Positions 15,684-62,976 of a stretch of DNA of 64,000 nucleotides are shown in pieces. Within the stretch, counting starts at the first letter, position 1. Each line of letters starts with the position of its first letter. The stretch is from NCBI GenBank assembly GCA_963751165.1, contig CAVVTP010000011.1, forward strand, positions 164,995 through 228,994. The letters run 5' to 3'. The position numbers and the translations under genes were made by a program. Source of the stretch: an uncultured Alphaproteobacteria bacterium. Lineage in GTDB: Bacteria > Pseudomonadota > Alphaproteobacteria > Rhizobiales > Beijerinckiaceae. The notes beneath the pieces were generated by a model. The model made no database searches. It was given only the letters and a program-made list of their open reading frames with translations, and was not told where the DNA came from.

Positions 15684-16250
15684 TCAGCGCCTCGACGCCG
15701 AACGCCGGTTCGATTGCCCCGGGCATAAAGATCGTCCCGAATGACGAGCTTCATTCCCCAGCGCGAACTCCAAGTTCTCCTCCGTCAACCCGACCCTTAG
15801 CCGACCAAGGGGTTCACCACCGCAATGTTCGCGACGCGGTTGAAGTCGCGATCCGCCGACCAAAGCTCGCCCCCCATGCTGCTTACAAGAGTTCGCGATG
15901 CGCGCATCGGGAACCTGAGCCCCGGCAATTCGTCCGGCGACGATCAGCGCCCGCAACGACGGCCAGTGGGCTTCCCACTCAGCCAAGAGCACGAGCGTGG
16001 GCGCCTCGAGCCAAGCGTCCGCCCTGTCGAGCGCCCGGCGCAAGCGCGTTGGAGGCGCGTAGATGCGGGGATGGGTGACAGTAGCGAGAAACTCGTGAGT
16101 GCATGGCCAGGGGATCGACCACGTCACCGGTCCCTCCGTGAGTTCCGCAATTCGCTTCGAAGCAGCATCGTGAAACGGCGAGTCCTCGCGATGAGCGTGG
16201 CGGGAATGTTCGTGTCGACGGCGATCAAGCGCCGCGAACTCTCATAGCCC
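15684..16250 (-). CDS. PIN-domain (VapC-like) toxin, disrupted by a frameshift near 16127
   Basis: The PIN N-terminal motif LIAVDTNI is in the 16124-16459 ORF frame. The continuation (....QVPDARIAN...) is in the 15684-16127 frame. Sits next to a VapB-like antitoxin. Confidence 0.35.
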
Positions 16251-16253
16251 AGT

Positions 16254-16481
16254 TCACACAGCTTGTCCCACGACGCGTCGTGGAGAAAACTGGCTGAAGC
16301 CCCCTGCCCTTGAAGCTGGCGTGGCGCAGCTTGAAGGGCGCGGTTGGCCTTGTCTCCGCGACGACACGACGAAGCCCCGCTCCACGCACAAGCGCAGCGT
16401 GACTCCCTCGCGCTCAGGAAGCTTGTGGACCTCGCGAAGAAGCGGATCGGAAACTTCAATCCTCGTCTTCATGGTCCTCAC
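16254..16481 (-). CDS. VapB-family antitoxin-like small protein
   Basis: N-terminus MKTRIEVSDPLLREVHKLPEREGVTLR resembles VapB/RHH-type antitoxins. The C-terminus appears frameshifted. Confidence 0.4.
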   Translation of the reverse strand: MRTMKTRIEVSDPLLREVHKLPEREGVTLRLCVERGFVVSSRRQGQPRPSSCATPASRAGGFSQFSPRRVVGQAV

Positions 16482-16592
16482 GTATGGGACAAGCTATATG
16501 GCCGCCCATACTCTAGATTGTTGGGCCCAGGGAGCAAGTCGCCGCGCTCTGTGGATGTCTGGCGACCATCGATTTCGCTGCTTGCGCGACTG

Positions 16593-19500
16593 TCACCGGA
16601 AATTTCGCCCCGCCGGCATCGCGCGCCTCGCCTCGATGATCTCGGATGCGATATCGGCTGGCGCATGCGGCGCGTCGAGCCGCGGCGTCTGGGCGAACCT
16701 GTTGCCCTGGCGCTTCTGCGCCATCGTCAGCTGCGGCCGTTTGACTTCGTCGGCGCGGGCAGTCGCCGCGATCGTCTCTCCTGCCTCCGACAGGAGCCCG
16801 AGCCACGGCGTCAGGTCCTCCATGCGGTCGGCGACGACGTGGACGACGCCCTGCTCGTTCTGCAGCTTCCCGGTGACGGCGACGAAGCGGGCGCCGAGCA
16901 CGATTGCGCGCAGGCGCTCGAACGCCTTCGGCCAGACGATGACGTTGGCGACGCCCGTCTCGTCCTCGAGCGTCATGAAGATGACGCCCTTGGCGGTGCC
17001 GGGCCGCTGGCGCACCAGCACGAGGCCTGCGACAGTCACGCGCTCGCCGCTCTTTGCCGAGGCAAGCGCCTCCGAGCGCAGGATTCCCCGCGCGGCGAGG
17101 CGGGCGCGCATGAACGAGGTCGGATGGGCCTTCAAGGACAGCGACAGGCGCCGGTAGTCCTCGACCACATGCGTCCCGAGCGGCATCGGCGGCAATTTCG
17201 CGTCGGGCTCCGCCTCGCGTCCGGGCCGCGAGGCGGCGAACAGCGGCAGGTCGTCCTGGTCGCCGACCCGGTCAAGGCCGCGCACCGCCCACAGGGCCTG
17301 GCGCCGGTTGAGGCCGAGCGAGCGGAAGGCGTCGGCGTCGGCGAGCTTTTCGAGCGTGGCGGCGCCGAGGCCGCTCCTGAGCCAGAGGTCGCGCACCGAA
17401 TCGTAGCCTTCTCCTCGCCGCTCGACCAGACGGCGCATGTCGTCCTCCTTAACCCCGACAACCTGCCGCAAGCCAAGGCGCACGGCACGAGTTCGCGCGG
17501 ATGAAAGGCGCCATCGAGGCGTGGCGGGGGTGGATGTTTCCCTTCTCCCGCTCGCGGGAGAAGGTGTCGCCGAAGGCGACGGATGAGGGCTTTGCGCCCT
17601 CGCCCTCACCCCCGACCCCTCTCCCGCAAGGGGGAAAGGGGAGAGACTCCAGCGTGCAGTCCCAGTCCGACAGGTTGACATCGACCTCGCGCAATTCGAC
17701 GCCGTGCTCGCGCGCGTCGCGCACGAGCTGGGCGGGCGCGTAGAAGCCGAGCGGCTGGGAGTTGAGCATCGCGGCGGCGAAGACGTCGGGGTAGCGGCAT
17801 TTCATCCAACACGAGGCGTAGACGAGAAGCGCGAAGCTCGCCGCGTGGCTCTCGGGGAAGCCGTATTCGCCGAAACCCTCGATCTGGCGGAAGCAGCGCT
17901 CGGCGAAGTCGCGATCGTAGCTCCTGGCCGCCATGCCCTCGATCATCTTGTCCTGAAACGTCTGGATCGTGCCAACCCGGCGGAAGGTCGCCATGGCGCG
18001 GCGCAGCCGGTCGGCTTCCGAGGGCGTGAAGCCGGCCGCGACGATGGCGATCTTCATCGCCTGCTCTTGGAAGAGCGGCACGCCGAGCGTCTTCTTCAGG
18101 ACCGCCTCGAGCTCCCGCGAGGGATAGACGACCTCCTCGAGCCCCTGCCGGCGACGCAGATAAGGGTGCACCATGTCACCCTGGATCGGGCCAGGCCGCA
18201 CGATCGCGACCTCGATGACGAGGTCATAGAACGTCTCGGGCCTGAGGCGCGGAAGCATCGACATCTGCGCCCGGCTCTCGATCTGAAACACGCCGATCGT
18301 GTCGGCGCGCTGGATCATCGCGTAGACGCAAGCCTCCTCCGGCGGGATGGTCGCGAGCGTCAGGCTCTCGCCATAATGTTTTCCAAGGAGATCGAGGCTC
18401 TTAGACAGCGCCGTCAGCATGCCGAGCGCGAGCACGTCGATCTTGAGGAGGCCGAGCGCGTCGAGATCGTCCTTGTCCCATTCAATGGTGGTGCGGTCCT
18501 CCATCGCGGCGTTCATGACGGGAACGACCTCGTCGAGCCGGTCGCGAGTGATGACGAAGCCACCGCTGTGCTGGGTGAGATGGCGTGGAAAGCCGGTCAA
18601 TTCCTCCGCCATTTCTAGCGCCAGCCTGAGCGTTGGATCGGCCGGATCGAGGCCCGCGGCGCGCGCCTCCTTCTCGCCGATCGGCGTCGAGCCGTGGCCC
18701 CAGGCGGTTCCGTTCAGCGCCGTGATCACGTCATCGGAAAGGCCGAACACTTTCGCCGTCTCGCGGATCGCCGAACGCGTCCGGTAGGTGGTCACCGCCG
18801 CGGCGAGCCCCGCCCGCTCGCGCCCGTAGCGCCGGTAGATGTACTGGATGACCTCCTCGCGCCGCTCATGCTCGAAATCGACGTCGATGTCCGGCGGCTC
18901 GTTGCGTTCGGGCGAGACGAAGCGCTCGAACAGGAGATCGAAGCGCGCCGGATCGACCTCGGTGATTCCGAGACAGAAGCAGACCGCCGAATTCGCCGCC
19001 GAGCCGCGGCCCTGGCATAGAATTCCGCGCGAGCGGGCGAAACGCACGATATCATGCACCGTGAGGAAATAGGGCGCATAGTCGAGCGAAGCGATGAGGG
19101 CGAGCTCGTGCTTCAGCACCTCGCGCGTCCTCTCTGGCACGCCCTCGGGATAGCGCGCCCTGGCGCCTTCGAGGGCGAAGGCTTCGAGCGCGGCCTGCGG
19201 GTCGGGAAAACCCTCGCGCAGCTCCTCCGGGTAGCTGTGCGCAAGTTCATCGAGGCTGAAAGCGAGGCCGTCGAGGAAGCTTATCGTCTCCTCGACCGCC
19301 GCCGGCGCCTCGGCGAACAGCCGCGCCATTTCGCGCGGGTCTTTCAGATGACGTTCGGCATTGGCCTGCGTCAGGCGGCCGGCGGCCTCGAGTATCGTCT
19401 TCTCGCGGATGCAGGCGACGACGTCGGCGAGCGCGCGTCGCTCGGGCGCATGCATCAGCGCGTCGTTGGTCGCAAGGAGCGGCGCGCCGAGCCTCTTCGC

Positions 19501-20144
19501 CAGCGTCGCGCGCCTCGCCAGCGCCCCCCGCATGTCCTCCCCGTAGGTCAGGCTCGCGCCGATCCACAAGCGCCGGCCGAAGGCTTCACGCAGGCGGCTG
19601 AGAATCTTGCCCTCACCCCCAACCCCTCTCCCGCATAGCCCGTTGAGAGACGGGCGTCTTTCGACGCCCTTTGCGGGAGAGGGGCGCGCGTCCCTTCTCC
19701 CGCTTGCGGGAGAAGGTGGCCCGAAGGGCCGGATGAGGGGAAGCGCCACGATCTGCAGCCCCGCGCCATGCTCGAGGAGATCCTCGACCTGTAGTCGGCA
19801 CTCGCCCTTCGGCGCGCGCAGGTTTCCCGCGGTGAGAACCCGGCAGAGCCGGCCGTAGGCCACGCGGTCCTTCGGATAGGCGAGGAGATCGGGCGTCCCG
19901 TCGTCGAATGCGAGCCGCACGCCCGGAGCGATCCGCATACCCATGAGCGCCGCCTTGTTCTCGCGGGCGAAGACATGCGCGCGCACGACGCCGGCAAGCG
20001 TGTTGCGGTCGGCGATCCCGATCCCGGCGAGCCCGAGCTCCGCCGCCCGCGCGACCATCTCCTCGGGATGCGAGGCCCCGCGCAGGAAGGAGAAATTCGT
20101 CATCGCCGCCAGCTCGGCGAAGTGCGGCTCGAGGCGGATCATTT
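16593..20144 (-). CDS. dnaE2: Error-prone DNA polymerase DnaE2 (ImuC), reconstructed from two ORFs (17449-20229 and 16593-17681). Contains two mosaic-repeat insertions, and the frame changes across the second one.
   Basis: N-terminal PHP domain [24 protein letters not shown], with AGGAAAAATG-type context directly after a repeat hairpin. The polymerase core and the C-terminal [16 protein letters not shown] are collinear with ImuC. Gene order imuA-imuB-dnaE2. Confidence 0.85.
17540..17646. repeat. Mosaic palindromic repeat, solo cargo-less copy: H1 hairpin CCCTTCTCCCGCTCGCGGGAGAAGG, H2 hairpin GTCGCCGAAGGCGAC, module GGATGAGGGC, inverted module, terminal hairpin CCCCTCTCCCGCAAGGGGG. Lies inside dnaE2 at the point where the reading frame changes.
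   Basis: Direct reading of the sequence. The same modules recur at 19606, 20147/20577, 20941, 24244 and 61975. Confidence 0.7.
19606..19745. repeat. Mosaic palindromic repeat copy read through in frame inside dnaE2. Encodes ...[40 protein letters not shown]...
   Basis: Modules CTTGCCCTCACCCC, CCCCTCTCCCGCA[loop GCCCGTTGAGAGACGGGC]GCGGGAGAGGGG, CCCTTCTCCCGCTTGCGGGAGAAGG, GGCCCGAAGGGCC, GGATGAGGG. The 926-aa ORF runs through it without a stop. Confidence 0.7.
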
Positions 20145-20146
20145 TT

Positions 20147-20640
20147 CCCTTCTCCCGCTTGCGGGACAAGGCGGCGCGCCGAAGGCGCGCCTGATGAGGG
20201 CAAGAGCGCGCCTCACCATGACAAACCACATTTCGCGGCGATGGTCGCCAGCACGCTCTCGCGCGCCGTCAGAACGTCGCGATTACTGAATCGCAGGACC
20301 GTGTAGCCTTCGCGAGCGAGCCAGGCGACGCGAACAGAATCGCGTCGGCTCTCGGCATGTTGTGATCCATGCGCTTCCACGACGAGCCGGTGTGCGACGC
20401 AGAGGACGTCGACGATATAGGAGCCAATCGGCGCTTGCCGGCGAGACTTGAGCGCCTGCATGCGTCGGTCGCGCAGGGCGTACCAGAACCGCCGTTCGGC
20501 GTCGGTCGGATCGGTGCGCATCGTACGCGCGCGGGATTTTGCGGAAATGGGGACGTCGTTGCGCATGACTGTCTCCTCTCTTGCCCTCATCCAGCCGCGC
20601 TTCGCGCGCTCACCTCTCCCGCAAGCGGGAGAAGGGATCA
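20147..20640 (-). mobile_element. Candidate small mobile element: a DUF559 endonuclease gene flanked by terminal inverted repeats built from the mosaic-repeat modules, inserted between the imuB stop and the dnaE2 start
   Basis: Left end: CCCTTCTCCCGCTTGCGGGACAAGG, GGCGCGCCGAAGGCGCGCC, TGATGAGGGCAAGAG. Right end: CTCTTGCCCTCATCC, GCCGCGCTTCGCGCGC, CCTCTCCCGCAAGCGGGAGAAGGG. These are the reverse-complement order of the same modules. Solo copies such as 17540-17646 have the identical ends with only about 5 bp between them. Confidence 0.5.
20213..20566 (-). CDS. DUF559 (Vsr-like very-short-patch-repair endonuclease fold) domain protein
   Basis: About 117 aa: [35 protein letters not shown]...[23 protein letters not shown]...[22 protein letters not shown] matches the DUF559 family. 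Strong SD GAGAGGAGA 6 nt upstream. Same strand as imuB and dnaE2, so it can be co-transcribed from the LexA-controlled promoter. Confidence 0.7.
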
Positions 20641-22341
20641 CGCGAACACCCCGTGCACAAACCATTTCGCCTGCTCCGTCTCTTTCCCCCAGAGGCCCTC
20701 ACGGTAGAGCCAGAAGCGGCGGCCGTGTGAGTCCTCGGCGCGGAAATAGTCGCGCGTCGGGACGTCAGGGCTGCGCCACCAGGGAGCGGCGATGCGCTCG
20801 GGGCCCTCGATGGCAGCGACGTCGTGCAGCACGCGCCGCCAGCGGAAGCGGAGCGGCGGCCCGTCCGGCACTTCGGCGATCGCGTCGATCGGCTCGGGGC
20901 GGGTGAAGAGTCTCAGCGGTCGCGCCGGCGCGCTTCCTTCGCCCTCATCCGGCGACCCCCGGATCAAGTCCGGAGATCCCCGGCTACCTTCTGCTGCATA
21001 GAGCGTCGAAAGACGCCCGTCTCTCGATGGGCTAGGCAGGAGAAGGAATTCGCCCCCTCTCCCGCATGGGGCGTCGAAAGATGCCCGTCTCTCGACGGGC
21101 TTTGCGGGGGAGGGCTGGGGTGAGGGTGCGAGCGAAGCCGGCGCAACCCGCTCGGCCTGTTCGGGTAGATGCGCTTCGACGCGTTCGCGTCGCGTCACCG
21201 CGCGCACCCCCAGCCTCGCGCCGAGCCGATCGATGAGATCGGCGAGCGCGCGGGTTCGCTCGGCCTCGTAGGCGCGCTCGAGTTCGGCCTGCGAGGGCTC
21301 GAGCGGTTCGGCCATGAGGCACGAGAGGCGTATGAGGTCGACGCCGAAGCCCGCTTCGATCGCCTCCTCCTGCAGGCTTGCGAGCTTTTCGGCGAATAGG
21401 CGGAGAAAAGCGCGAGCTTCGTTGAGCGGCCGCGAAGCGCCGACCAGGATGCGGCGCACGTTGCCGTCGACGCGGTAGAGGCTGAGCTCGATCCGCCGAG
21501 CCCCCTTGGCCTGCCGCTCGAGCAGTACGACGAGATCGTCGGCGAGCTTGCGCAAAGACGCCTCGATCGCCTCGACCGTCTGCACGGGCGAGGTGAAGCG
21601 CCGCTCGGCGCAGAAATCGGGGGCGGCGAAGCGCGGCGCGATCGAGGCGCGATCGAGGCCTTTCAGCGCGTCGAGCCGCGCCATCGGCTGGGCGCCGAAC
21701 CGCGCCGTGATCGGCGCGCGCGGCCTGAAGGCGATGTCGCCGACGCGTTTCAGGCCCGCCCGCGCCATGTCGGCGACGGTCTTGTCGTCGAGGCCGAGGG
21801 CGGCGAGCGGCAGGTCGTGGAAGAGCCTTGCGAGGGCCTTGTCGCTCAAGGGCTCGGGCGCGATCTTCTGCGTCGAAAAGCGCGCCAGCGCCCAGGCGGC
21901 GCGCGGATTGCCGGCGGCGCCGCCCGCCGCGGCGACGCCGAGCGCGGCGAGGCGGCTGACGCAAGATTCCATCAGCGCCTGTTCGCCGCCGAACAGATGC
22001 GCCACGCCGGAAATGTCGAGCATCAAGCCGTCGCGTCCGTCGAGCGCGGCGAGCGGGGTGAAGCGAGAGCACCAGTCGCATAAACGCTCGAGAAGCCGCG
22101 CCTCTTCCGCCGGATTAGCCTGGACCGCGACGAGGGCGGGATGACGCGCGCGCACGTCCGCCAGCGAGAGGCCGGCCGTCAGGCCGAGTTTTGCGGCGTT
22201 CATGTCGACGCAGACGAGCCGCTCGGCGTTGTTGACCCTGGCGACCGCCGCGAGCGGCGCCGCCCGATCAATGGCCTCGAGCCGCCGGGCTCGGTCCGTC
22301 GCCAAACGCGGCAGCCAGAGAGAGAGAAATCGCCGAATCGT
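20638..22341 (-). CDS. imuB: ImuB (Y-family polymerase-like SOS mutagenesis protein), carrying an in-frame mosaic-repeat insertion
   Basis: Collinear with ImuB. Likely TTG start at 22341 (MTIRRFLSLWLPRLATDR) behind GAGGAG, whereas the listed ORF extends to 22395. C-terminus ...RLFTRPEPI...WFVHGVFA. The stop abuts the DUF559 element. Confidence 0.8.
   Translation of the reverse strand, partial: TIRRFLSLWLPRLATDRARRLEAIDRAAPLAAVARVNNAERLVCVDMNAAKLGLTAGLSLADVRARHPALVAVQANPAEEARLLERLCDWCSRFTPLAALDGRDGLMLDISGVAHLFGGEQALMESCVSRLAALGVAAAGGAAGNPRAAWALARFSTQKIAPEPLSDKALARLFHDLPLAALGLDDKTVADMARAGLKRVGDIAFRPRAPITARFGAQPMARLDALKGLDRASIAPRFAAPDFCAERRFTSPVQTVEAIEASLRKLADDLVVLLERQAKGARRIELSLYRVDGNVRRILVGASRPLNEARAFLRLFAEKLASLQEEAIEAGFGVDLIRLSCLMAEPLEPSQAELERAYEAERTRALADLIDRLGARLGVRAVTRRERVEAHLPEQAERVAPASLAPSPQPSPAKPVERRASFDAPCGRGGEFLLLPSPSRDGRLSTLYAAEGSRGSPDLIRGSPDEGEGSAPARPLRLFTRPEPIDAIAEVPDGPPLRFRWRRVLHDVAAIEGPERIAAPWWRSPDVPTRDYFRAEDSHGRRFWLYREGLWGKETEQAKWFVHGVFA
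20941..21136. repeat. Mosaic palindromic repeat copy read through in frame inside imuB. Encodes ...[64 protein letters not shown]...
   Basis: Modules GCCCTCATCCGG, nested hairpins CCCCCTCTCCCGCA[GGGGCGTCGAAAGATGCCCGTCTCTCGACGGGC]GCGGGGGAGGG, GGGGTGAGGGTGCGAG. The 585-aa ORF is continuous across it. Confidence 0.7.
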
Positions 22342-23164
22342 CAAAAGTCGTCTCCTCGCTTCGCCATTCGAGCCTGACTGCCCGCGCGGGGTCATTTAGC
22401 CGTGCTCGCTGAACGCGGCCGTCGCGGTTCATAGGACATCCGGAAGGACGCCCGTCTCCCGACGAGCTATCGGCCGCGCCTACAGAACCGCCAAGGCGCG
22501 CCTTGACGAGCCGCGCCCGGCAGGCGAAGGGGCCCGGCAGGTCCCGGCCAGCCGCCGCAGAAATTTTTGCGCTCGGTGCGGCGGCGATCTCGAACCGCGT
22601 CTCGGCTGCGCTCGACAGTTTGTCCGCCTGGCCATAGGCGCTCGCCAGGACGAGCAGCGCCGGCGCGCGCCCTTTTCGCGCAGCGAGCAGCAGGCGGCGG
22701 GAGGCGGCGAGGCTGTAGCCCTTCAAGTTCCAAATCTCGCCGACGACCGCAGCCGTCGCGCCGCATTTGAGCGCCTCCTCCATCGTCCAGAATGCCGCCT
22801 CGGCGTCGGGCGCCTGGACGAAGACGAGGCGGCTTACGGGAAGCCCATGCGCGGCGAGCCCCGGCCCATAGAGCGCGCCTGCCTCGCGCCCCACGAAACT
22901 CTCGCCGACGAACAGCGCGGCCGACGGCCGTTGCTTCAGGAATTGCGCGGCGAGAGCGAGCGCGAAGCCCATCGCCGCGGCCCCGTCGGCCGGCTCCGCC
23001 GGGGCGATCTCGTGCAGGGCGTCGACGGCGAGGCCTCCGCCGAGCGCTGGATCGAGCGCGCGGGCAAGCGGGAGCCGCCGCGCGGCGCGCTGAAGTCCCG
23101 TCCCCTCGATTTCCGAGACGGCACGCCGCAAACGCGCCATCTCCGCTTTGCCGCCGAGCGACAT
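22268..23164 (-). CDS. imuA: ImuA (RecA/SulA-like SOS mutagenesis protein). The 3' end is uncertain and the ORF probably over-extends across a repeat fragment at 22447-22467.
   Basis: First gene of the cassette. ImuA-like N-terminal 230 aa. A LexA box lies 19 bp upstream of the ATG at 23164. The last 60-70 codons overlap imuB and look non-native. Confidence 0.65.
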   Translation of the reverse strand: MSLGGKAEMARLRRAVSEIEGTGLQRAARRLPLARALDPALGGGLAVDALHEIAPAEPADGAAAMGFALALAAQFLKQRPSAALFVGESFVGREAGALYGPGLAAHGLPVSRLVFVQAPDAEAAFWTMEEALKCGATAAVVGEIWNLKGYSLAASRRLLLAARKGRAPALLVLASAYGQADKLSSAAETRFEIAAAPSAKISAAAGRDLPGPFACRARLVKARLGGSVGAADSSSGDGRPSGCPMNRDGRVQRARLNDPARAVRLEWRSEETTFDDSAISLSLAAAFGDGPSPAARGH

Positions 23165-23182
23165 TCGGTCTCACGCCTTTCT

Positions 23183-23197
23183 GTTCAATCTTTGTTC
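23183..23197. promoter_or_regulatory. Alphaproteobacterial LexA (SOS) box GTTCaatctttGTTC upstream of imuA
   Basis: Exact GTTC-N7-GTTC, with a second overlapping GTTCtcgttttGAAC palindrome at 23194-23208. Located 19 bp upstream of the imuA start. Confidence 0.8.
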
Positions 23198-23439
23198 TCG
23201 TTTTGAACCTTGGCGCGGCGAGAGTCAAGAGGACGGGCGCGCATGGCGCTGACCTTCAGGTCCGCGAGGCATGCGGGGTCCTCGCAAACATCCCGATATC
23301 GTTAGACGGCTTGAGCCTGACGCCGATGTCATTCCACAGTTTTTCTGCCGGTGACCCCCTGCTTTTGCTCCAGGCACAGCGGAACAAAACGGGCGGCGCG
23401 AGCACGCAAGCCCTCTTATTTCAAAGAGCCGGGAAGGCA

Positions 23440-23621
23440 GCCCGGCGATTACGCCAAAGTATGGACGCCGCCGCCCGGCAAGGCGCCCAGAAGCCAAAGC
23501 AACACCAGGACGACCGGACCAGTCCCAGCACGCCACCGAGACCGGGACCGCCACAGCTGCCGGTAGCCGTAGTAGCCGCCTCCGCCACTGAGAATGATCA
23601 GCACCAAAAATGATCAGAAGG
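23440..23621 (-). CDS. Small two-TM membrane protein (DUF3309-like, GGGGYYGY motif), apparently disrupted by a homopolymer indel
   Basis: Reading ATGATAACGATCCTTCTGATCATT...: after removing one T from a T5 run the ORF becomes MITILLIILVLIILSGGGGYYGYRQLWRSRSRWRAGTGPVVLVLLWLLGALPGGGVHTLA (60 aa). Confidence 0.3.
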
Positions 23622-43605: not shown

Positions 43606-43771
43606 GCGTTGGTCCTCCGCGATGCTGGAGTTGAAAGATTAGCGCCTCGCGGCGAAAAGATTAAGACCGGCGTCGGTTCCAGTCTGGTTCAGAAAATTCC
43701 GCGCCCGGCGCCAAGCGTCCCTCCCCCTATCCCGTTCGCTCAAGCGGCTCCGGATTGGCGCGCAAGTAATA

Positions 43772-56077: not shown

Positions 56078-56195
56078 TGGCGTCGCCAGGCGCGCGAAAA
56101 TGCGTCCCCTGAAATCCCCTCACCGAACAGGATGCGATAGATTGTCGGAGCACGCAATATTCGGGTCTGATTGACTCTTGGTGCAAGTGGTCTTT

Positions 56196-57068
56196 CTACA
56201 ACGGCATCATCCGAGCGCGGAGCAACTCGACTCCGGCGCGGCCATACATGGCTCGCTTGAGGGTCTTCAATTTGTTGATCTGTCCTTCGGTCTGTCCGTT
56301 GCTCCAGGGTTCCGACACAGCGTTCCGAACCGCCTCCAGGTCTTGGCGTATCGTCCTCGCGAAACGCTGCAACGCGTAGATGCCAGACGCGCGAGCGTCG
56401 ATCAGCCAAGCGTCCAGGCCCTCCGGCGTTCCGCCACGAAGCAGGCCTCGAAAGCGCATCGCCAGGCGCCGCATCGCGGTGAACTCGGCGGACGCCGCTT
56501 TCAGCGCGGCGACGTTGGCGGCCTGCCGGGCGGTCATCTGGCCGCGGGGTTTGACGCACAGCGCCGCGGCGGTGAGCGGCGAGATCAGGCGACCAGTCAT
56601 CGGATCCAGCGTTCGCACGCGGACCGGGGCCCGCTCCCCCTGCTCGTCGCCATCGAGTAAAGGCTTGCCGCCGCGCCAGGGAGCAAGGAAACGCGCCAGA
56701 TGACTGAAGGACCCGGTATAGCCGCGATGGCGTATCTCGGCGAATAAGTGCCGAACCTTAGTGATGCCTTCGGCCCACCGCCGCTCCAGCAGAACGCCAA
56801 AATACGCCGGGGCGGAAGGGGTTGACGCCATTGTGTTGCGGTCCGGCAAATCGATCCGACGGACCCACCGTTCGACCCGCCGGCGACCAAGACCGAGTTT
56901 TTGGGCGATTTCCCGGATGGAACTGCCACCTTCAAAAAGCGTCCTGATCTCATCGAATAGCTGTTGCCGGACAGCTTGGCAGTATTTGGCATCGCAAACG
57001 CACGTGATTGAGCCGATGCTGCGCTGTTGCGCTGCGCTTAAATGGGGTCTGATTGACTTCTGGTGCAA
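56196..57068 (-). pseudogene. ISL3-family transposase derivative (HTH region plus C-terminal SNGQTEGQINKLKTLKR motif, DDE core missing), copy 1
   Basis: ...IREIAQKLGLGRRRVERWVR...PWSNGQTEGQINKLKTLKRAMYGRAGVELLRARMMPL. About 290 aa versus about 450 for intact ISL3 transposases. Confidence 0.6.
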
Positions 57069-57077
57069 GTCGTCTTC

Positions 57078-57893
57078 CTACAACGGCATCATCCGAGCGC
57101 GGAGCAACTCGACACCGGCGCGGCCATACATTGCTCGCTTGAGGGTTTTCAATTTGTTGATCTGTCCTTCGGTCTGCCCGTTGCTCCACGGTTCCATCAC
57201 AGCGTTCCGAACAGCCTCCAGGTCCTGCCGTATCGTCCTCGCAAAACGCTGCATCGCGTAGATCCCAGACGCGCGCCCGTCGATCAGCCACGCATCCAGC
57301 CTCTCCCGCGTTCCACCGCGAAGCAGACCTTGAAACCGCATCGCCAGATGCCGCATCGCGGTGAACTCCGTCGACGCCGCCTTCAGCGCATCGACGTTGG
57401 CGACCTGCCGGGCGGTCATCTGGCCACGGGGTTTGACGCAAAGCGCCGCCGCAGTCAGCGGCGAGATCGCGCGGCCGGTCATCGGATCCAGTGTTCGCAC
57501 ACGGACCGGCGCTGGCTCCTCCTGCTCGACACGCACCTGCTCGTCACCATCGAATGAAGGCTCGCAGTTGCGCCAGGGAGCGAGGAAACGTGCCAGATGG
57601 CTGTAGGACCCGGTATAGCCGCGATGGCGAATCTCAGCGAACAAGTGCCGGACTTTGGTAATGCCTTCAGCCCAACGCCGCGCCAGCAGAGCGCCGAAAT
57701 ACGCTGGGGTGCACGGATTTGGCGCCATGGTGTTGCGATCCGGCAAATCGATGCGACGGACCCAACGTTCGACCCGTCGGCGACCAAGACCGAGCTTGCG
57801 AGCGATCTCCCTGACGGAACTGCCACCTTCAAAAAGCGCTCTGATTTCATCGAATAGCTGTTGCCGAATCGCCTGGCGTCCGTGGCGCATCAA
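57078..57893 (-). pseudogene. ISL3-family transposase derivative, tandem copy 2
   Basis: Near-identical to copy 1 (same internal deletion). Confidence 0.6.
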
Positions 57894-59830: not shown

Positions 59831-62893
<3,063 letters not shown>

Positions 62894-62961
62894 CGGACCT
62901 CGACGACAATTTTCGGGCTTCGAGCGCGAATCGCGCTTGCGCGAGCCGGGTCTCGATGCTA

Positions 62962-62976
62962 GAACAAATAAAGAAC
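62962..62976. promoter_or_regulatory. LexA (SOS) box GAACaaataaaGAAC in the divergent uvrA-ssb intergenic region
   Basis: Exact GAAC-N7-GAAC, the reverse complement of the alphaproteobacterial GTTC-N7-GTTC consensus. Confidence 0.75.

Follow-up and report, generated by a model that had tools for sequence, protein, structure and literature searches.

The window analysed here, 64,000 nucleotides (nt) of contig CAVVTP010000011.1 from an uncultured member of the Beijerinckiaceae (Alphaproteobacteria), holds a cassette between the SOS mutagenesis genes imuB and dnaE2 in which a gene for a DUF559 (COG2852, YcjD-like) Vsr-fold endonuclease is framed by two inverted copies of a structured repeat. The gene (20213–20569; Pfam PF04480) encodes 117 amino acids (aa) plus a stop, has a GAGGAG ribosome-binding site upstream of its open reading frame (ORF) and lies on the minus strand, as do imuA, imuB and dnaE2. 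The arms on its two sides are ∼60 nt each and inverted relative to one another. The dnaE2-side arm (20146–20206) comprises a hairpin H1 (20147–20171), a second hairpin H2 (20173–20191, GCCgaaGGC loop) and a third-strand block M (20193–20206), while the imuB-side arm (20578–20637), an inverted copy that abuts the imuB stop, runs through M′ (20578–20591), H2′ (20594–20609) and H1′ (20613–20636). An earlier note, made from this sequence alone, had described the gene as framed by inverted H1-H2-M modules, and both the module sequences and their reversed order were confirmed. The outer part of the inverted repeat pairs 20146–20179 with 20604–20637 (34 nt, 85% complementary) and the inner part pairs 20180–20206 with 20578–20604 (27 nt, 78% complementary). 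The cassette of ∼495 bp takes up the whole spacer from the imuB stop (20638–20640) to the dnaE2 ATG (20142–20140).

Each arm combines a CCCTYCTCCC/GGGAGRAGGG hairpin with a mirror third block, GGATGAGGG, and carries a mini-hairpin with a GNA loop in its second loop. A pattern of this kind, CCCTCNCCC–loop–GGGNGAGGG–loop–GGGNGAGGG, defines the BoxC/PIT/TM repeats, which form an intrastrand purine-motif triplex (Holder et al. 2015, PMC4666352). The earlier note had described a mosaic, MITE/REP-like repeat family; judged by this pattern, the arms are no new family but the known BoxC/PIT/TM motif: H1 is the motif's hairpin, M is its third strand and H2 sits in the second loop. As cited by Holder et al., the repeat was described as BoxC in the 1990s (Bergler 1992) and as PIT elements by Hoyne & Maher (2000, 2002). 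Neither PMC4666352 nor the earlier work reports an associated gene class, a protein or a link to mobile elements for these repeats. In Escherichia coli, TM loci show raised genomic instability around the motifs, inverted A-plus-B dimers are known, and the triplex of the E. coli copies (TMECO) has been shown in vitro (PMC4666352).

The H1 core pattern matched 10 times in the window against 0.62 expected, and none of 100 shuffles reached 10. The two cassette arms are slightly decayed, with one stem mismatch in the dnaE2-side H1 and 7/9 valid triplets on each arm in a strict 9-nt test that gives 9/9 in most relatives. Nearest-neighbour DNA folding of the window arms returned the H1 and H2 hairpins (z −1.6 to −3.5), with −18.5 kcal/mol and z = −2.2 for the dnaE2-side arm. 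Rfam gave no match of note and a PADLOC search for defence systems gave no match.

The encoded protein matched PF04480 at E = 4.3e-34 (117 bits, cut-off 20.6) over profile positions 3–107 of 109, and the NCBIfam YcjD equivalog model scored 86 bits, under its 218-bit cut-off; by these scores it is a member of the DUF559 family and not a YcjD orthologue. This family has ∼29,000 clusters at 50% identity. A protein 100% identical to the window copy is present in public data (P0001), and the sole solved relative is the structural-genomics entry PDB 3HRL from Neisseria gonorrhoeae (E = 8e-32). DUF559, with its PD-(D/E)XK fold, was the only domain found in the Pfam search, and no HUH Y1 (IS200/IS605-like) transposase domain was detected there. 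This bears out the earlier reading of the embedded protein as a Vsr-fold nuclease and not a RAYT, the protein partner of repetitive extragenic palindromic (REP) sequences. Vsr itself uses D51, H64, H69 and D97, and the window protein has D53, E64, H70 and D76. The Vsr family was absent from the Pfam matches, and no methylase gene was found between imuA and dnaE2, the part of the genome covered, where the DUF559 neighbours are imuB and dnaE2. By family match and by local methylase linkage, the protein does not qualify as a true Vsr.

The association of gene and repeat was examined across the family in 90 DUF559 loci (given here by L numbers), gathered through a genome scan, a metagenome scan and exact look-ups; 78 were testable. 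At each, the 200 nt before DUF559 were aligned to the reverse-complemented 200 nt that follow it. Flanking inverted repeats had a median score of 53 at the DUF559 loci compared with 19 at 1,796 control positions in the same loci, and 59/78 loci lay above the controls' 99th percentile (Mann-Whitney p = 4e-37). At loci outside the imu operon, 121 perfect motifs were found within 150 nt of DUF559 ends (5.48/kb) and 25 elsewhere (0.084/kb), i.e. a 65-fold higher density at the gene ends. Both measures support the earlier reading of the gene and its inverted modules as one unit. Most loci show the same order, H1, H2, M, gene, M′, H2′, H1′, in cassettes that are typically 431–513 bp long. The spacing is narrow: in those of the 18 examined loci that yielded the flanking repeat, the left arm stopped 5–47 nt short of the DUF559 start codon and, with one exception, the right arm began 0–11 nt past the stop. 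Gaps between inward-facing motifs were bimodal, with 21 dimers at 0–80 nt and 47 pairs at 325–390 nt; all 47 of the latter enclose DUF559, and no other cargo was seen.

Dispersed motif copies, compared within loci of 4–20 kb rather than whole genomes, resembled the arms of their local DUF559 gene (similarity 0.821) more than the arms of other loci (0.720), and the highest of 300 permutations reached 0.765. The likeness that the earlier note drew to RAYT genes flanked by inverted REPs is apt. Some arms are near-identical, with 53/53 nt matching in L023. With repeat sequences that are specific to each lineage, the pairing recurs from Alpha-, Beta- and Gammaproteobacteria to Deinococcota and Cyanobacteria. 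A DUF559 gene and its inverted arms form a coherent unit, and they do so across the family. The searchable literature, which is incomplete, gave no paper that connects DUF559 with BoxC/PIT repeats, so a prior description is possible; the note's statement that no role of DUF559 with such repeats has been described stands on the same footing.

Several observations on database records touch the same genes. Many DUF559 proteins (P0241–P0388) are annotated with 40–100 extra N-terminal residues, which are probably ORF calls reading through the upstream arm and not real domains. The annotation 'DUF559 domain-containing protein' is 14-fold enriched among predicted programmed-inversion targets, which is what flanking inverted repeats would produce. 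Carriage by phages was considered and rejected: the viral collection gave only 25 weak matches, many of them near the end of the retrieved contig stretch.

To characterise the arms as structures, we used 147 DUF559-flanking arms with a 9-nt pyrimidine/purine hairpin, sought a third block within 45 nt and scored G*G:C, A*A:T and T*A:T as valid purine-motif triplets. A third block with 9/9 valid triplets was present in 113/147 arms, compared with a mean of 21 and a maximum of 31 perfect arms in 500 trials in which the hairpin block was swapped between sequence classes. Among arms whose purine block is not mirror-symmetric, 62/89 fit the antiparallel register and 4/89 the parallel one. Hairpin and third block vary together in the way that an antiparallel purine triplex demands: GGGAGAAGG occurs with GGATGAGGG (15/15), GGGGGAGGG with GGG[AT]GGGGG (14/16) and, as a further pair, AAAGGGGGG with GGGGGGATT. 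The second loop is at least 12 nt long in 74 of the 113 perfect arms and contains a hairpin in 62 of those 74. These hairpins have 49 distinct stems and are mostly GNA triloops closed by C:G (GCgaaGC 16 times, CCgaaGG 10 times, GCgcaGC 7 times). Triloops of the d(GCGAAGC) type are classic extra-stable DNA mini-hairpins. Work cited by PMC4666352 indicates that RNA does not adopt purine-motif triplexes. Both the triplexes and the mini-hairpins point to selection on a single-stranded DNA structure.

The cassette belongs to a mutasome operon that is preceded by an SOS box. A LexA-type SOS box of the alphaproteobacterial form GTTC-N7-GTTC, GTTCAATCTTTGTTC (23183–23197), lies 19 nt upstream of the ATG of imuA (22268–23164, minus strand; assigned by position and orthologues), which carries a repeat fragment (family D14) near its 3′ end at 22443–22469. 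The Y-family polymerase-like gene imuB follows on the same strand (Pfam IMS and IMS_C; longest ORF 20638–22395); because the public gene call in L001 is 555 aa, translation probably starts near 22305. The gene dnaE2, for the error-prone homologue of polymerase III alpha (16593–20142, minus strand; Pfam PHP, DNA_pol3_alpha, finger, HHH_6 and OB), completes the imuA-imuB-dnaE2 order, to which DUF559 adds one extra gene between imuB and dnaE2. Across 16000–23600 no promoter-like or terminator-like consensus sites were found, and a role of the arms as terminators or promoters was rejected on this ground. The LexA box that the earlier note placed at 23183 is present and, with no predicted promoter or terminator inside the operon, co-transcription of DUF559 with the mutasome is plausible; the gene is probably transcribed with the imu genes from the LexA-controlled imuA promoter. 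Further GTTC-N7-GTTC matches at 43676 and 49767, adjoining an RND pump and a GAF-cyclase gene, were set aside as LexA sites and are probably chance matches.

The cassette is syntenic at the imuB-dnaE2 junction in at least 13 loci (listed: L001–L007, L011, L012, L074, L094 and L106). The L001 assembly encodes the same DUF559 protein and is 99.7% identical to the window over 14 kb. Homologues of 77–85% identity lie between imuB and dnaE2 in L002–L007 and L011, and the same junction is occupied in L012 (DUF559 65%), L094, L106 and the distant L074 (DUF559 47%, ImuB 42–45%). The divergence of DUF559 matches that of its neighbours (ImuB 71–81% and DnaE2 79–85% identity), and in six intact syntenic orthologues its dN/dS was 0.13 at dS 0.68; the first 130 codons of dnaE2 gave 0.15 at dS 0.46. 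The right flank varies among orthologous loci, being an inverted A motif in L001–L003 and an inverted B plus a direct A motif in L004–L006. On these comparisons the cassette has long resided in the SOS operon, passed on vertically and kept under purifying selection. A recent mobile insertion was rejected on the synteny and on a divergence equal to that of imuB and dnaE2, and the earlier picture of an element 'lodged' in the operon as a mobile insertion has to be given up.

Loss of the gene at this junction could be followed through intermediate states. DUF559 is broken in L007 and possibly in L006. In L107 both arms are kept at the orthologous site with 76 nt between them and the gene is gone; this spacer was rejected as a DUF559 remnant, as its similarity was not above that of shuffled controls. 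In L104 a single H1-type hairpin (of the long-loop type) remains between the imuB stop and the dnaE2 start. A neighbour-joining tree of the ImuB core (365 columns, without bootstrap) grouped L107 with L011 and L104 with L005, in each case within the gene-bearing clade, and ImuB core identity to the window was 88.6% for L107 and 90.6% for L011 compared with ∼80% for the gene-bearing L002, L003 and L005. Because both are nested among gene-bearing loci in this tree, the gene-less junctions are derived losses and not the ancestral state. These loci show, at the level of sequence, a decay series from full cassette to broken gene (L007, possibly L006), to two arms with 76 nt (L107) and to a single hairpin (L104), which indicates that deletion within cassettes gives rise to gene-less dimers and ultimately to single hairpins. 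H1 equals its own reverse complement, so its two terminal copies double as direct repeats, and this would give a simple route to the single-hairpin state. The two-arm L107 is a short gene-less derivative of the kind predicted in the earlier note. It also shows both flanks at the junction in a relative that lacks the gene, an arrangement which the note had named as one that would refute its idea, yet this is a loss inside the gene-bearing clade and not the ancestral state. Three other relatives from one sub-clade, with an ImuB core 77% identical (L095, L096 and L105), have imuA-imuB followed by transglutaminase-like genes, so that the mutasome operon is split; they were set aside as evidence on the junction, since imuB is not followed by dnaE2.

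Motifs of the same type recur within the operon. With a looser hairpin test, we counted 10 triplex-type hairpins in the window, eight of which are in the imu operon, at two sites in dnaE2, in a block in the imuB linker and in the two arms of the gene. One dnaE2 site is a gene-less inward-facing dimer of an A-type and a B-type motif with a 13-nt gap (17541–17641), in frame inside the gene and resembling the inverted A-plus-B dimers of E. coli (PMC4666352). The earlier note had taken this copy (17540–17646) for the same two ends as the cassette, ∼5 bp apart; it is actually an A-type arm facing another subtype without H2, and it lies inside the dnaE2 coding sequence, where it is also in frame in the near-identical L001. 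The other site (19604–19745), which occupies an insertion hot spot towards the N-terminus of dnaE2 and keeps the frame, is a composite of an inverted B-type motif with a long-loop H1 and a direct A-type motif. At these sites, 17541–17589 and 19693–19739 score 9/9 triplets. The imuB linker block (∼20936–21114) contains triplex and CGTC-type repeats and is likewise in frame. Some H1 hairpins (19623–19683, 20986–21046, 21054–21114 and 22443–22469) have a 42-nt insert in the loop, e.g. CGTCGAAAGACGCCCGTCTCTCGACGGGC, which is a pair of small hairpins, a second repeat nested in the first, and is similar to the REPs with CGTC tags that Di Nocera et al. describe.

The remaining two hairpins form a dimer inside uvrA (61975–62090), the only dimer outside the imu operon. 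A second GTTC-N7-GTTC LexA-type box (62962–62976) lies ∼100 nt upstream of uvrA (minus strand, ∼60700–62900), so every triplex-type hairpin in the 64-kb window sits either in the imu operon or in uvrA, both preceded by such boxes. Across eight imu loci, 38 perfect motifs were found in 52.9 kb of operon compared with 4 in 94.7 kb of flanks. Within the operon, five or six indel hot spots (∼22340–22500, 20940–21130, 19606–19742, 17540–17644 and 16450–16580) are common to the relatives L002–L007 and L011 and are filled by differing motif variants in each genome, and the proteins tolerate 30–60 extra residues there. At the dnaE2 N-terminal hot spot, L002 is almost empty and L003 carries a tandem run of CCAAAC. 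REPs that keep the frame of dnaE2, uvrA and further repair genes have been reported without explanation (Di Nocera et al. 2013, PMC3733652).

Reading frames in the window call for some caution. Compared with L001, in which the 1182-aa gene is intact, the dnaE2 of the window changes frame through a 1-nt insertion near 17492, and a break of dnaE2 by the solo repeat was therefore rejected. The reading frame of uvrA (60700–62900) switches at least five times. From these switches and the dnaE2 insertion, the window is probably a long-read metagenome assembly with indel errors, in which apparent pseudogenes are not to be trusted. Elsewhere in the window, 56163–57835 contains two pairs of 300-nt direct repeats (56163/57045 and 56639/57536) that are 86–90% identical and ∼880–900 nt apart, and looks like a tandem duplication of a ∼0.9-kb gene.

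DUF559 cassettes are also found within operons and genes unrelated to the imu operon. In Sinorhizobium meliloti the arms are 114 nt long and identical at 110/114 positions. A Sphingomonas cassette lies between sufB and sufC (L103, Sphingomonas parapaucimobilis plasmid, 1430–1875), and on a Synechocystis sp. B12 plasmid (L098, 840–3318) a cassette follows a short DUF1156 ORF and apparently splits the DUF1156 gene. Azospirillum and N. gonorrhoeae have partial, one-sided forms. In E. coli (K-12, L091, 2540–3340, ycjD-fabI; also L093, 1860–2580), ycjD ends inside a degenerate triplex hairpin, past which part of the DUF559 3′ end is present a second time, ahead of TMECO no. 9, which we take to be the original BoxC, next to fabI. 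In a divergent ycjD allele of E. coli the order is gene, inverted B motif, direct A motif, as it is in L004–L006.

Our preferred reading, which we hold at about even confidence, is a RAYT/REPIN-like partnership in which a Vsr-fold nuclease, co-transcribed with the SOS genes, acts on the folded triplex ends. DUF559 would be the protein partner of the triplex-repeat family, as RAYTs are for REP/REPIN sequences. The nuclease may recognise the folded single-stranded arms and nick or cut there, and the break could then be repaired by copying, with the arms as homology. Copying of this kind would spread, homogenise and turn over motif copies at the gene ends and at distant gene-less dimers, and SOS induction would couple the activity to times when single-stranded DNA is abundant. 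Precedents are Vsr-fold homing endonucleases such as I-Bth0305I (PMC3239194), the Caulobacter DUF559 protein VsrA, which DNA damage induces and which itself damages DNA (PMC12907096), the instability of E. coli TM loci (PMC4666352) and the enrichment of DUF559 proteins among predicted inversion targets. Break-and-copy is more credible than transposition because strand transfer is beyond a 117-aa PD-(D/E)XK protein and target-site duplications are missing. For the same reason the word 'autonomous' in the earlier note was too strong, as a nuclease of this size and fold cannot be a complete transposase. More tentatively, and with somewhat less confidence than in the partnership itself, we suggest that DUF559 proteins, including E. 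coli YcjD, are the long-missing partner of BoxC/PIT repeats across bacteria, with triplex and GNA ends read by a Vsr-fold nuclease that is SOS-wired in the present operon.

A number of findings weigh against this partnership. At 19 of the 78 loci the flanking score fell below the controls' 99th percentile, and at some loci the flanks are one-sided or absent. In Deinococcus proteolyticus and Synechocystis the motif has the opposite orientation with respect to the gene. Direct signs of recent movement were not found: there was no target-site duplication at 22 cassette ends, perfect arms included, and no near-identical cassette in two contexts among the 90 loci. E. coli K-12 has 23 TMECO copies and a single ycjD with repeats on its 3′ side only, and ycjD is present in 3,378/5,426 complete E. 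coli genomes, leaving 38% without it. The E. coli pangenome was rejected as a comparison of filled and empty sites: strains lacking ycjD carry an efflux operon, which adjoins sapF in the O157:H7 strain examined, and this allelic replacement is uninformative on mobility. Stable triplexes were not detected in vivo by Holder et al. (PMC4666352). Finally, the window protein departs from 21 relatives at four nearly invariant positions (F41S, F54V, D66H and D80V). The view that this copy is catalytically dead was not sustained: D66 lies opposite Vsr His64 in a by-eye alignment, so that D66H gives a Vsr-like residue at a position that is variable (Asn208 in I-Bth0305I; PMC3239194), and PDB 3HRL has Thr at the D80 position.

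The arms could instead be the target of a homing-type selfish gene, DUF559 cutting the centre of pre-existing dimers and being copied in, with the repeats spread by other means. Vsr-fold homing endonucleases exist, e.g. I-Bth0305I, and their homing is proven (PMC3239194; PMC2677866). The lack of target-site duplications agrees with such a mechanism, as do the two classes of pair gaps, which would be 'empty' dimers and 'filled' pairs with none between. Cassettes are found between genes of unrelated operons (sufB/sufC and imuB/dnaE2) and inside the DUF1156 gene, and the L074 DUF559 resembles copies from other contexts (67% to L051) more than it does the remaining imu-linked ones. However, the gene-less two-arm state at the imuB-dnaE2 junction is derived and not ancestral, and the filled/empty polymorphism between close relatives was captured only as loss. 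Purifying selection at a fixed locus over dS ∼0.7 would also be unusual, since a homing gene should decay once fixed. We regard this explanation as unlikely.

A host repair function deserves about the same, low, credence: DUF559 would be a VsrA-like mismatch or damage endonuclease recruited to the SOS operon to the benefit of the cell, and the motifs would be ordinary REP-like repeats that act as cis elements of the gene, such as insulators or structures in mRNA or DNA, or that are incidental. Caulobacter has two DNA-damage-induced DUF559 proteins, VsrA (CCNA_02930), which also causes DNA damage, and CCNA_02876, and the VsrA phenotype, read as that of a very-short-patch repair enzyme, is tied to a solitary cytosine methylase (PMC12907096). 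The conserved operon position and low dN/dS of the window gene are those expected of a host enzyme, REPs are already known inside dnaE2, uvrA and other repair genes (PMC3733652), and all motifs in the window lie in the imu operon or uvrA, both with GTTC-N7-GTTC boxes upstream. Such a function leaves unexplained the same inverted motif, with the same spacing and polarity, in unrelated contexts and phyla and with 65-fold enrichment, as well as the match of dispersed copies to local arms. Moreover, no methyltransferase gene lies between imuA and dnaE2, and PIT elements were without promoter or terminator activity in E. coli.

Least probable of all is that there is no functional link, with DUF559 ends serving as landing sites of an independent mobile repeat (target e.g. 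CTTGCCCTC) or reflecting the shared ancestry of a few old cassettes: the differing right flanks of orthologues (inverted A in L001–L003, inverted B plus direct A in L004–L006) and the operon hot spots refilled with different variants in each genome would fit, whereas the association spans Alpha-, Beta- and Gammaproteobacteria, Deinococcota and Cyanobacteria with lineage-specific repeats, the right arm starts 0–11 nt past the stop in most loci examined, and several cassettes have near-identical arms (53/53 nt in L023, 110/114 in S. meliloti).

The repeats, the DUF559 proteins and REPs inside repair genes have all been described before; new, as far as the searchable literature shows, are the connection of DUF559 with BoxC/PIT repeats and the conserved place of a cassette of this kind in an SOS mutagenesis operon. 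BoxC/PIT/TM repeats have been known since the early 1990s (PIT was named in 2000), occur in hundreds of genomes and mark unstable loci, and have remained orphans. If the link is true, both orphans, the repeat and the DUF559 family, would gain a testable role, DUF559 would be a natural protein that reads a DNA triplex, and the idea of long-lived nuclease-repeat partnerships would extend from RAYT/REPIN to a second enzyme fold, i.e. to a second RAYT-like class. Repeat turnover would then be inducible by DNA damage, which could explain the pile-up of motifs in dnaE2, imuB and uvrA, and the placement in a LexA-controlled mutasome would account in concrete terms for the known excess of palindromic repeats within genes of DNA repair.

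Compared with the published BoxC/PIT/TM repeats, the window arms have the same block-loop-block-loop-block pattern, the same inverted A-plus-B dimers and a triplex-compatible third block. They differ in that the blocks of the window lineage are CCTTCTCCC / GGGAGAAGG / GGATGAGGG, the second loop holds a GNA-loop hairpin of 12–26 nt, and the repeats bracket DUF559 genes, whereas no associated protein is reported for the published ones. The intragenic REPs of Di Nocera et al. (PMC3733652) and the Rickettsia palindromic elements are also in-frame palindromic repeats in repair genes, as seen here in dnaE2, imuB and uvrA, but the former are GTAG-/CGTC-tagged REPs with their own RAYTs, and no link to DUF559 was made. 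Caulobacter VsrA and CCNA_02876 are, like the window protein, DUF559 proteins of an alphaproteobacterium; they are induced by DNA damage and can cause it, but VsrA lies outside the imu operon and was interpreted as acting in very-short-patch repair. The EDxHD homing endonucleases share the Vsr-type catalytic core in a selfish, invasive gene; theirs sit in group I introns or inteins and have extra DNA-binding domains, whereas the window DUF559 is free-standing, single-domain and flanked by structured repeats. A miniature inverted-repeat transposable element (MITE) with an autonomous parent would resemble the cassette in its terminal inverted repeats but not in the missing target-site duplications at 22 cassette ends; the gene-less two-arm L107, by the tree a derived state, may be a short copy made by internal deletion.

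The closest likeness in organisation is to REPtrons and the RAYT-REPIN system (Nunvar 2010; Bertels & Rainey 2011). Both consist of a small nuclease gene within inverted short structured repeats that are also dispersed, and in the genomes sampled the DUF559 gene, too, was found at one conserved locus and looks vertically inherited; the gene-less inverted dimers are comparable to REPINs, and dispersed copies match the flanks of the local gene. In contrast to the HUH Y1 transposase of RAYTs, the DUF559 protein is a 117-aa PD-(D/E)XK Vsr-fold nuclease with a putative mobilising role, and the repeat it accompanies is a three-block triplex motif with a mini-hairpin instead of a GTAG-/CGTC-tagged palindrome.

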